Shown here in pieces: positions 1,233 to 1,662 of a stretch of DNA of 6,420 bases; position 1 is the stretch's first letter; each line of letters starts with the position of its first letter. The notes under the pieces were generated by a model that saw only the letters and a list, made by a program, of their open reading frames with translations, was not told the DNA's origin and made no database searches. The position numbers and the translations under genes were made by a program. Source of the DNA: a virus. Its lineage: Duplodnaviria > Heunggongvirae > Uroviricota > Caudoviricetes. The stretch is taken from IMG/VR virus record IMGVR_UViG_2675903352_000008; one strand, written 5' to 3'.

Positions 1233-1314
1233 GTGCCACTTATCTCGGATAGATATGGTGAATGCGCTGGTGGAGGAAGTAAGGGTGATTTTTAATCAGG
1301 TGATTTTTGAATGC

Positions 1315-1343
1315 TTGCAACATTGATTTCGTAACGTTATTAT
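1315..1343 (+). promoter_or_regulatory. Putative sigma70 promoter of the tRNA array: TTGCAA-N17-TATTAT
   Basis: -35 TTGCAA 1315-1320, 17-bp spacer, -10 TATTAT 1338-1343, GC-rich discriminator CCTGCACCC, predicted start 2-3 nt before tRNA 1. Upstream AT-rich direct repeat GGTGATTTTT x2 (about 1284-1308) resembles an UP element. Confidence 0.5.
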
Positions 1344-1352
1344 CCTGCACCC

Positions 1353-1428
1353 GGCCCTTTAGCTCAGTGGTGAGAGCGAGCGACTCATAATCGCCAGGTC
1401 GCTGGTTCAAATCCAGCAAGGGCCACCA
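1353..1428 (+). tRNA. tRNA with anticodon CAU, ileX/ileZ-like (tRNA-Ile2 lysidine type, or Met)
   Basis: 76-nt cloverleaf: acceptor GGCCCTT/AAGGGCC, D-loop with GG, anticodon loop CTCATAA, T-loop TTCAAAT, encoded CCA. Strong similarity to E. coli ileX as recalled. Confidence 0.85.
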
Positions 1429-1429
1429 A

Positions 1430-1506
1430 CCGCCACTAGCTCATCAGGAAAGAGCGTCAACCCTTTAAGTTGAGTGTGCGAGGTTCGAGTCCCCGGTGGC
1501 GGTCCA
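1430..1506 (+). tRNA. tRNA-like gene with atypical anticodon loop CCTTTAA (formal anticodon UUU, C at position 33)
   Basis: Perfect 7-bp acceptor stem CCGCCAC/GTGGCGG, D-arm GCTC/GAGC with GG in loop, anticodon stem TCAAC/GTTGA, T-arm CGAGG-TTCGAGT-CCCCG, discriminator T, encoded CCA. Only the anticodon loop is non-canonical. Confidence 0.6.
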
Positions 1507-1508
1507 GT

Positions 1509-1584
1509 GCCGACTTAGCTCAGTAGGTAGAGCAACTGACTTGTAATCAGTAGGTCACCAGTTCAATTCCGGTAGTCGGCACCA
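1509..1584 (+). tRNA. tRNA-Thr (anticodon UGU)
   Basis: 76-nt cloverleaf: acceptor GCCGACT/AGTCGGC, anticodon stem ACTGA/TCAGT with loop CTTGTAA, T-loop TTCAATT, CCA. Resembles E. coli thrU. Confidence 0.8.
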
Positions 1585-1587
1585 TAT

Positions 1588-1662
1588 GCGGGCATCGTAT
1601 AATGGCTATTACCTCAGCCTTCCAAGCTGATGATGCGGGTTCGATTCCCGCTGCCCGCTCCA
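1588..1662 (+). tRNA. tRNA-Gly (anticodon UCC), glyT-like
   Basis: 75-nt cloverleaf: acceptor GCGGGCA/TGCCCGC, anticodon stem TCAGC/GCTGA with loop CTTCCAA, T-arm GCGGG-TTCGATT-CCCGC, CCA. Appears near-identical to host glyT as recalled. Confidence 0.85.

Follow-up and report, generated by a model that had tools for sequence, protein, structure and literature searches.

The stretch of DNA analysed here, called the window throughout, comprises 6,420 nt of the IMG/VR virus record IMGVR_UViG_2675903352_000008 (Caudoviricetes) and represents part of a lambdoid prophage with the gene order RusA, Q, transfer RNA (tRNA) array, YagU/DUF1440, P21-type holin, lysozyme, Rz, PerC-family gene and Nu1. The subject of the analysis was the tRNA array, contained in a 379-bp feature at positions 1284-1662. 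ARAGORN called four tRNA genes on the plus strand, with the anticodons CAU (1353-1428), UUU (1430-1506), UGU (1509-1584) and UCC (1588-1662), and Rfam likewise called four, in agreement with a preliminary description of the sequence, which had proposed a four-gene phage tRNA array. In this order, the genes scored 72.5, 44.4, 73.8 and 64.9 bits against RF00005, all above the gathering threshold of 29 bits, with E-values spanning 6e-15 to 3.5e-7; the four matches are far beyond chance. Minimum-free-energy folding of the single tRNAs, which gave no cloverleaf for genes 1 and 2, is uninformative for tRNAs and the covariance model was therefore used for the calls. A CCA end is encoded in all four genes, and the genes are separated by spacers of 1, 2 and 3 nt. 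The near-universal U33 is kept in genes 1, 3 and 4, while gene 2 has C33.

Upstream of the array, the late antiterminator gene Q was identified at 408-1097 on the plus strand (Pfam PF06323 Phage_antiter_Q, E=1.3e-91) and is named Q in relatives; a PDB sequence search with Q returned no relevant structure. Downstream of Q, a terminator scan and RNA folding revealed a strong plus-strand intrinsic terminator at 1206-1232, predicted to be the functional equivalent of tR', with the sequence AAAACCCGC-CCACAA-GCGGGTTTT and a T run. It consists of a GC-rich 9-bp stem followed by 7 T and is kept in relatives. With Q and this terminator on one side and the lysis genes on the other, the array occupies the Q-to-lysis interval, 3' of the terminator, where the preliminary description had placed it. 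The closest complete genome was that of E. coli 377323_2f, with 98.7% identity over the whole window and 100% over 1284-1662, and there the same prophage is located at the tRNA-Ser gene adjoining mtfA. The best genome match, CP039404 (98.7% over the whole window), differs in the number of tandem repeats.

The first gene (1353-1428) is identical in all 76 positions to ileZ of Shiga toxin (Stx) phages, and shows 92% identity to ileY and 89.5% to ileX, from which 6-8 positions distinguish it, and 69% to the elongator genes metT and metU. Its acceptor stem, GGCCCUU/AAGGGCC, contains the C4-G69 and C5-G68 pairs, which are required by E. coli TilS (PMC1635315). Because of the ileZ/ileY/ileX-like body and these TilS pairs, gene 1 is assigned as tRNA-Ile2, predicted to read AUA after lysidine modification of its CAU anticodon, and not as a methionine tRNA; with 69% identity to metT/metU versus 100% to ileZ, the tRNA-Met assignment was rejected. 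Database naming is divided between tRNA-Ile, as given by PGAP (NCBI), and tRNA-Met in several phage records; for the CAU gene, tRNA-Ile2 (ileZ) is the name to use instead of the latter.

The third and fourth genes correspond to host genes. The tRNA-Thr (UGU) gene at 1509-1584 matches host thrU in 75 of 76 positions and the tRNA-Gly (UCC) gene at 1588-1662 matches host glyT in 75 of 75, so that their noted resemblance to thrU and glyT amounts to 98.7% and 100% identity. The consensus of the relatives for the Thr gene is exactly thrU (76/76); the one deviation, G57A in the T loop at window position 1565, is specific to the window and differs from about 90% of relatives. E. coli has one copy each of thrU and glyT. 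In the host thrU-tyrU-glyT-thrT (tufB) operon, thrU and glyT are 206 bp apart, whereas in the cassette they are joined by TAT only, and the Thr-TAT-Gly junction equals the host thrU...glyT sequence minus one clean 206-bp stretch comprising tyrU and its flanks; the chance of such a 3-nt junction match was roughly estimated at 6%. The cassette thus shares thrU and glyT with the host operon, and lacks tyrU, thrT, the host promoter and the host flanks. The pair looks as if it had been captured from the host operon with tyrU deleted. Among relatives, the Gly gene shows a compensatory change of C6-G66 to U-A, which indicates selection on the tRNAs themselves.

The second gene (1430-1506), here designated Lys*, had been described as an atypical UUU tRNA, and this was borne out by the lowest RF00005 score of the four, by C33, C1-G72 and U73, and by an A51.C63 mismatch. 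Its identity to argN of Stx phages is 84% (65/77), compared with 59.5% to host lysT, and it shares with argN the scaffold features C1-G72, U73, U15 and the A51.C63 mismatch. The anticodon loop reads CUUCGAA in argN and CCUUUAA in gene 2, and the stem changes between the two keep pairing, with G30-C40 replaced by A-U and three wobble pairs by Watson-Crick pairs. The RF00005 score of argN is 54.8 bits, 10 bits above that of gene 2. Judged from these comparisons, gene 2 is an anticodon-switched derivative of argN (UCG to UUU), unrelated to host tRNA-Lys. Its UUU anticodon is combined with the discriminator U73; in bacterial tRNA-Lys, the determinants for lysyl-tRNA synthetase (LysRS) include A73 (PMC9976931). 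It would be a mistake to treat the UUU gene as a standard lysine tRNA. Among one-genome-per-species representatives, the scaffold was confined to E. coli and Shigella flexneri. The acceptor stem of Stx-phage argN (UCG) contains the wobble G3.U70, the major alanine identity determinant, where gene 2 of the window has G3-C70; the PPompW form of gene 2 combines G3.U70 with UUU and a D-stem deletion.

Constraint on gene 2 was assessed in 93 four-gene arrays. Nucleotide diversity, computed for gene 2 outside the stretch fixed by the search pattern, was 0.032, in comparison with 0.005 for the Ile2, 0.011 for the Thr and 0.015 for the Gly gene. Two lineages of gene 2 carry changes that are probably damaging, namely U8C, seen at 17 loci, and the loss of 1 nt from the D stem, seen at 14 (about 27% of loci in all). 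Polymorphism and variants together suggest weak constraint. C33 was present in 113 of 113 Lys*-type loci, and scans of IMG/VR returned neither U33-UUU nor UCU intermediates on this scaffold, only unrelated tRNAs sharing the anticodon arm. A covariation analysis of 13 haplotypes with the gene 2 scaffold gave one compensatory pair, with 150 of 500 shuffles as good, and had no power since diversity is too low. On balance, we are inclined to regard gene 2 as a dispensable passenger under weak constraint and not as a lysine tRNA that is needed.

Immediately upstream of gene 1, a plus-strand promoter is proposed at 1315-1343 on the basis of a consensus scan, a phylogenetic footprint and a homologous transcription start site (TSS), with TTGCAA as -35 element (1315-1320), a 17-bp spacer and TATTAT as -10 element (1338-1343). 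This sigma-70-like site matches the consensus at 9 of 12 positions. In the region, four promoter-like sites were found versus 3.7 expected in shuffled sequence; shuffled sequence being equally rich in such sites, the consensus match alone is no evidence, and the promoter call therefore rests on comparison across lineages. In different phages, at least seven unrelated sequences stand upstream of ileZ, and all seven lineages compared retain TTGC of the -35 element, the 17-bp spacer, an invariant TATTAT and a distance of 9 nt to the tRNA. Mean pairwise identity among the seven is 1.0 in the -10 and 0.87 in the -35 element, 0.62 in the spacer, 0.65 in the discriminator and 0.32 further upstream. 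By this measure of conservation, the promoter at 1315-1343 is real in an evolutionary sense. A primary TSS of the tRNA genes that lie between tR' and stx2AB was called by differential RNA sequencing of strain Sakai (PMC7547250), and the promoter of the Sakai Stx2a prophage (Sp5) has the same architecture as the tRNA promoter of the window. Transcription of the cassette independently of Q would thereby be well supported by homology. Of the promoter as originally proposed, the location 3' of the terminator stands and the hexamers are kept across seven lineages, but with 9 of 12 positions matched, the terms near-consensus and strong were overstated.

The stretch between the -10 element and gene 1 (1344-1352, plus strand) comprises 9 nt, CCTGCACCC, and is interpreted as a GC-rich discriminator with a leader of 2-3 nt; most relatives have CCTGCGCCC. 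Six of the seven lineages share a GC-rich discriminator. Position 1350 is A in the window and G in about 90% of relatives, and this breaks the GCGC motif of the discriminator. Upstream of the -35 element, the AT-rich direct repeat GTGATTTTT occurs twice on the plus strand with a period of 15 (1285-1293 and 1300-1308), and is single-copy in many relatives. The repeats had been regarded as UP-like; they represent a lineage-specific 15-bp duplication absent from many otherwise identical cassettes. Of the two marks of a stable-RNA promoter under stringent control (ppGpp/DksA), a GC-rich discriminator and an A+T-rich UP element upstream, the first is thus widespread among the lineages, and the AT-rich repeat is specific to a lineage. 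Another promoter-like site, TCGGCA-16-TATAAT at 1576-1603, lies inside the Thr and Gly genes, its TATAAT being part of the glyT D arm, and was taken as a chance match.

Of 5,426 complete E. coli genomes, 600 contain the entire 379-bp feature, with its genes annotated as Ile, Lys, Thr and Gly. The array is thus already annotated in public records; deposited phages carrying it include PhiR47_1 and vB_EcoM-606R7, and gene 2 is skipped in two such annotations. In the open-access literature, no paper was found on this array composition, nor was any found in a search for ileZ, argN and argO jointly. Among the first 120 matches of an IMG/VR scan with the T arm of gene 2, 93 were of the window type, 12 had the composition Ile-Lys*-argO and 6 Ile-argN-argO.

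Judged from its sequence relationships, the cassette represents a frequent variant, altered in gene composition, of the ileZ-argN-argO cassette known from Stx phages (933W, Sakai Sp5, Stx2a_F349). Both are found in the slot between Q/tR' and the downstream late genes, begin with the same ileZ, have the promoter TTGCAx-17-TATTAT followed by a GC-rich discriminator, and carry a second gene on the unusual argN scaffold. They differ in that the second gene is UCG/U33/G3.U70 in the Stx cassette and UUU/C33/G3-C70 in the window, and in that argO (UCU) of the Stx cassette is replaced in the window by Thr(UGU) and Gly(UCC). The intermediate composition Ile-Lys*-argO is found in PPompW-type prophages. 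The preliminary description had called the array a different set from that of Stx phages; this applies to the replacement of argO by Thr and Gly, whereas ileZ, the argN scaffold and the promoter are shared. Accordingly, the cassette is read as combining the promoter and ileZ common to both types with a derivative of argN and with copies of host thrU and glyT in the place of argO.

A further lambdoid tRNA module, the Asn(GUU)-Thr(UGU) pair of P21, SfI, Sf6 and ST64T, resembles the cassette in its Q-to-lysis slot and in containing Thr(UGU). Unlike the cassette, the pair in phage SfI (839-991) lies 6 nt after the terminator and has no promoter of its own, and its Thr gene is divergent in sequence and no copy of thrU. 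For SfI, over-use of ACA by the phage has been reported, with Asn(GUU) unexplained by codon usage according to the authors (PMC3636060). Compared with host thrU, the SfI Thr gene is altered at the positions mapped as sites of AriB and P2 Old, and Asn(GUU), Thr(UGU) and Lys(UUU) together make up the published set of AriB targets.

Codon usage was compared between the annotated genes of a near-identical prophage and 42 K-12 genes. In early genes, the odds ratios were 4.2 for ATA, 3.2 for ACA and 3.3 for GGA, and in late genes 3.1, 1.5 and 1.9, respectively. Three accessory genes (morons) contained 24 ATA, 21 ACA and 39 GGA codons per 1000, versus 2.4, 5.4 and 6.0 in the host sample. The bias in late genes, for which the preliminary description had suggested such a comparison, is thus present but modest, the largest bias being that of the early genes and morons. 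Over-use of ATA, ACA and GGA fits supplementation of three minor tRNAs. AAA was not over-used, with odds ratios of 1.0 in early and 0.59 in late genes. Codon supply therefore cannot explain gene 2 and was rejected as the basis of its presence; K-12 itself carries a cluster with at least five genes for tRNA-Lys(UUU).

Taken together, the feature is probably a self-contained tRNA operon cassette of about 350 bp, carried by lambdoid prophages of E. coli and Shigella, with a Q-independent promoter and three suppliers of minor tRNAs. The cassette was found behind different Q regions and before different cargo, and on this comparative evidence it is a discrete, mobile module. In the lysogen, by homology, RNA polymerase from the late promoter would halt at the terminator at 1206-1232. 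The sigma-70 promoter, about 80 bp past it, would start transcription 2-3 nt before the first tRNA and give a precursor of about 310 nt, from which RNase P and 3' exonucleases would release the four tRNAs, as expected from established tRNA processing. After induction, Q-modified polymerase would pass the terminator and add tRNA output from the replicating genome. Three members would supplement minor E. coli tRNAs for A-ending codons with further gene copies, Ile2/ileZ (modified to lysidine by TilS) reading AUA, Thr(UGU) reading ACA and Gly(UCC) reading GGA and GGG. Prophage genes, and accessory ones especially, exceed host genes in their use of these codons.

Several observations weigh against this explanation. 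AGA and AGG are equally enriched, yet the array has no Arg tRNA, argO having been lost; the late-gene enrichment is modest and the host reference comprises 42 genes only; and the AAA odds ratios given above leave gene 2 unexplained by supply. The TSS belongs to the homologous Stx2a-phage promoter, and the culture from which it was obtained included a lytic subpopulation. Concerning the passenger status of gene 2, all 113 Lys*-type loci agree in loop positions 33-38 and the stem differences from argN preserve pairing, which argues against simple decay. About one-ninth of complete E. coli genomes carry the cassette and therefore have an extra, probably constitutive copy of thrU and glyT and a third tRNA-Ile2 gene. 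Genes that are AT-rich and were acquired horizontally could be expressed more strongly as a result, among them the YagU-family and PerC-family cargo of the prophage.

As an alternative, an anti-defence role was weighed, in which gene 2 would be a nuclease-resistant lysine tRNA sustaining AAA/AAG decoding under attack by AriB of PARIS, possibly also by PrrC or Old-type nucleases, while the cassette resupplies depleted tRNAs in analogy to the tRNA-Lys of phage T5. We consider this explanation of the array unlikely. AriB cleaves E. coli tRNA-Lys at U36AAUC/A41 (the slash marks the cut), U39A abolishing cleavage and A41C and U16C impairing it (PMC12409363), and T5 escapes PARIS by means of a variant tRNA-Lys (PMC12409363, PMC11464382). 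With U36AAGUU41 and C16 (G39, U40, U41) versus U36AAUCA41 and U16 in the host, gene 2 differs at all four mapped positions, and its A30-U40 pair, in place of G30-C40 in argN, removes both CNG motifs used by P2 Old (PMC12445682); this match to nuclease sites was, however, noticed after the fact. In its favour are also the absence of AAA over-use, by which codon supply gives gene 2 no reason, the occurrence in the cassette of Lys(UUU) as well as Thr(UGU), the two chief targets of AriB, and the SfI/P21 module, which pairs a codon-unexplained Asn(GUU) (PMC3636060) with a Thr(UGU) whose AriB and Old sites deviate from those of thrU. In contrast, the Thr and Gly genes of the cassette are host-identical and hence as cleavable as the host copies, and supplying more host thrU protected little, if at all, against P2 Old (PMC12445682). 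A reading of the Thr gene as itself resistant to P2 Old or PARIS was ruled out on the same grounds, as it equals thrU and extra thrU gave no protection. Gene 2, with C33, U73 instead of A73 (PMC9976931), the T-stem A.C mismatch and the lowest score, may decode or charge poorly; it also varies more than the other three genes, and about 27% of its loci have variants that are probably damaging. Moreover, T5 tRNA-Lys remained uncleavable when the E. coli cleavage site was restored (PMC12409363). Gene 2 and T5 tRNA-Lys(UUU) have in common a viral UUU anticodon and deviations from E. coli tRNA-Lys at positions 39-41 and 16. For T5, resistance and rescue have been demonstrated; gene 2 comes from a temperate prophage, is derived from an arginine tRNA and has C33 and U73. 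That gene 2 is a functional nuclease-resistant lysine tRNA, made constitutively from the prophage and allowing the phage, perhaps also the lysogen, to survive tRNA-Lys cleavage by PARIS, PrrC or Old-type nucleases of rival P2/P4 elements, is decidedly unlikely. Its suggested origin would be an anticodon switch from UCG to UUU on an arginine scaffold, with the stem change also removing the Old CNG motifs. Gene 2 would be either decaying or a temperate-phage counterpart of the PARIS-defeating T5 tRNA.

Conserved tRNA sequences could also act as patches of homology for swapping Q/late-regulatory modules and cargo, with tRNA function secondary. The identical ileZ and -10 region behind at least seven unrelated upstream sequences is in line with such a linker, and so are the end of homology to most relatives within 2 nt of the Gly CCA, the 5' half common to the three compositions Ile-argN-argO, Ile-Lys*-argO and Ile-Lys*-Thr-Gly, and the variation of downstream cargo by phage (stx, a YagU-family gene, an esterase, lysis genes). 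This idea does not account for the constancy of the promoter hexamers, for CCA ends being encoded, for the very low diversity of ileZ or for the compensatory change in the Gly gene, and it is compatible with tRNA function and hence no true alternative; as the explanation of the cassette we regard it as quite improbable. Still far less probable is a tuning of the programmed -1 frameshift at the G/GT site of the tail chaperone, G GGA AAG, by the Gly(UCC) and UUU tRNAs. In the closest related prophage (CP039404), a canonical GGGAAAG heptamer is found in frame at position 34424, at the end of gene G, and G GGA AAG is decoded by exactly the species tRNA-Gly(UCC) and tRNA-Lys(UUU). The lambda frameshift, however, runs on host tRNAs only, and Stx-type cassettes lack both the Gly(UCC) and the UUU tRNA. 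The idea hinges on a single coincidence, probably a chance match of tRNA species and slippery site, and the evidence cited shows no tie to tRNA dosage. Minor-tRNA supply from a Q-independent operon remains the preferred explanation of the cassette.

Further features were found on both sides of the cassette. A consensus scan gave a candidate late promoter pR', TTGCAA-17-TATATT, at 1081-1109 on the plus strand, overlapping the end of Q; its position relative to Q and the terminator would fit a lambdoid pR'. In the short leader between this candidate and the terminator, the program TRF detected a plus-strand 9-bp tandem repeat, ATTTTGCCG, with 6.7 copies and 100% matches (1125-1184). The closest relatives (CP039404, 606R7, PPompW) have 1.7 copies of ATTTTGCCG, and the window therefore contains a 45-bp expansion, situated inside the would-be constitutive pR'-tR' small RNA.

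Downstream of the cassette, RNA folding revealed a plus-strand hairpin at 1770-1818, with 12-bp arms and a 14-nt loop followed by a T-rich stretch, which received no call in the terminator scan and may tentatively be considered a possible end of the tRNA transcript. The gene for a YagU/DUF1440 inner-membrane protein (1829-2389, minus strand) is an insertion that separates the tRNA cassette from the lysis genes and points the opposite way; it is flanked by terminators at 2673-2721 and is very rich in ATA, ACA, GGA and AGA codons. Transcripts initiated at the tRNA promoter would run towards it head-on. Within Rz, an open reading frame of 61 aa in another frame (4034-4219) has a lipoprotein-like signal (…LVVSACGS…), as in the usual Rz1 arrangement. 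Between Rz and the terminase small subunit gene, a PerC-family transcriptional activator gene was identified at 4747-5061 (PF06069, E=1e-42), preceded by a long AT-rich non-coding stretch.

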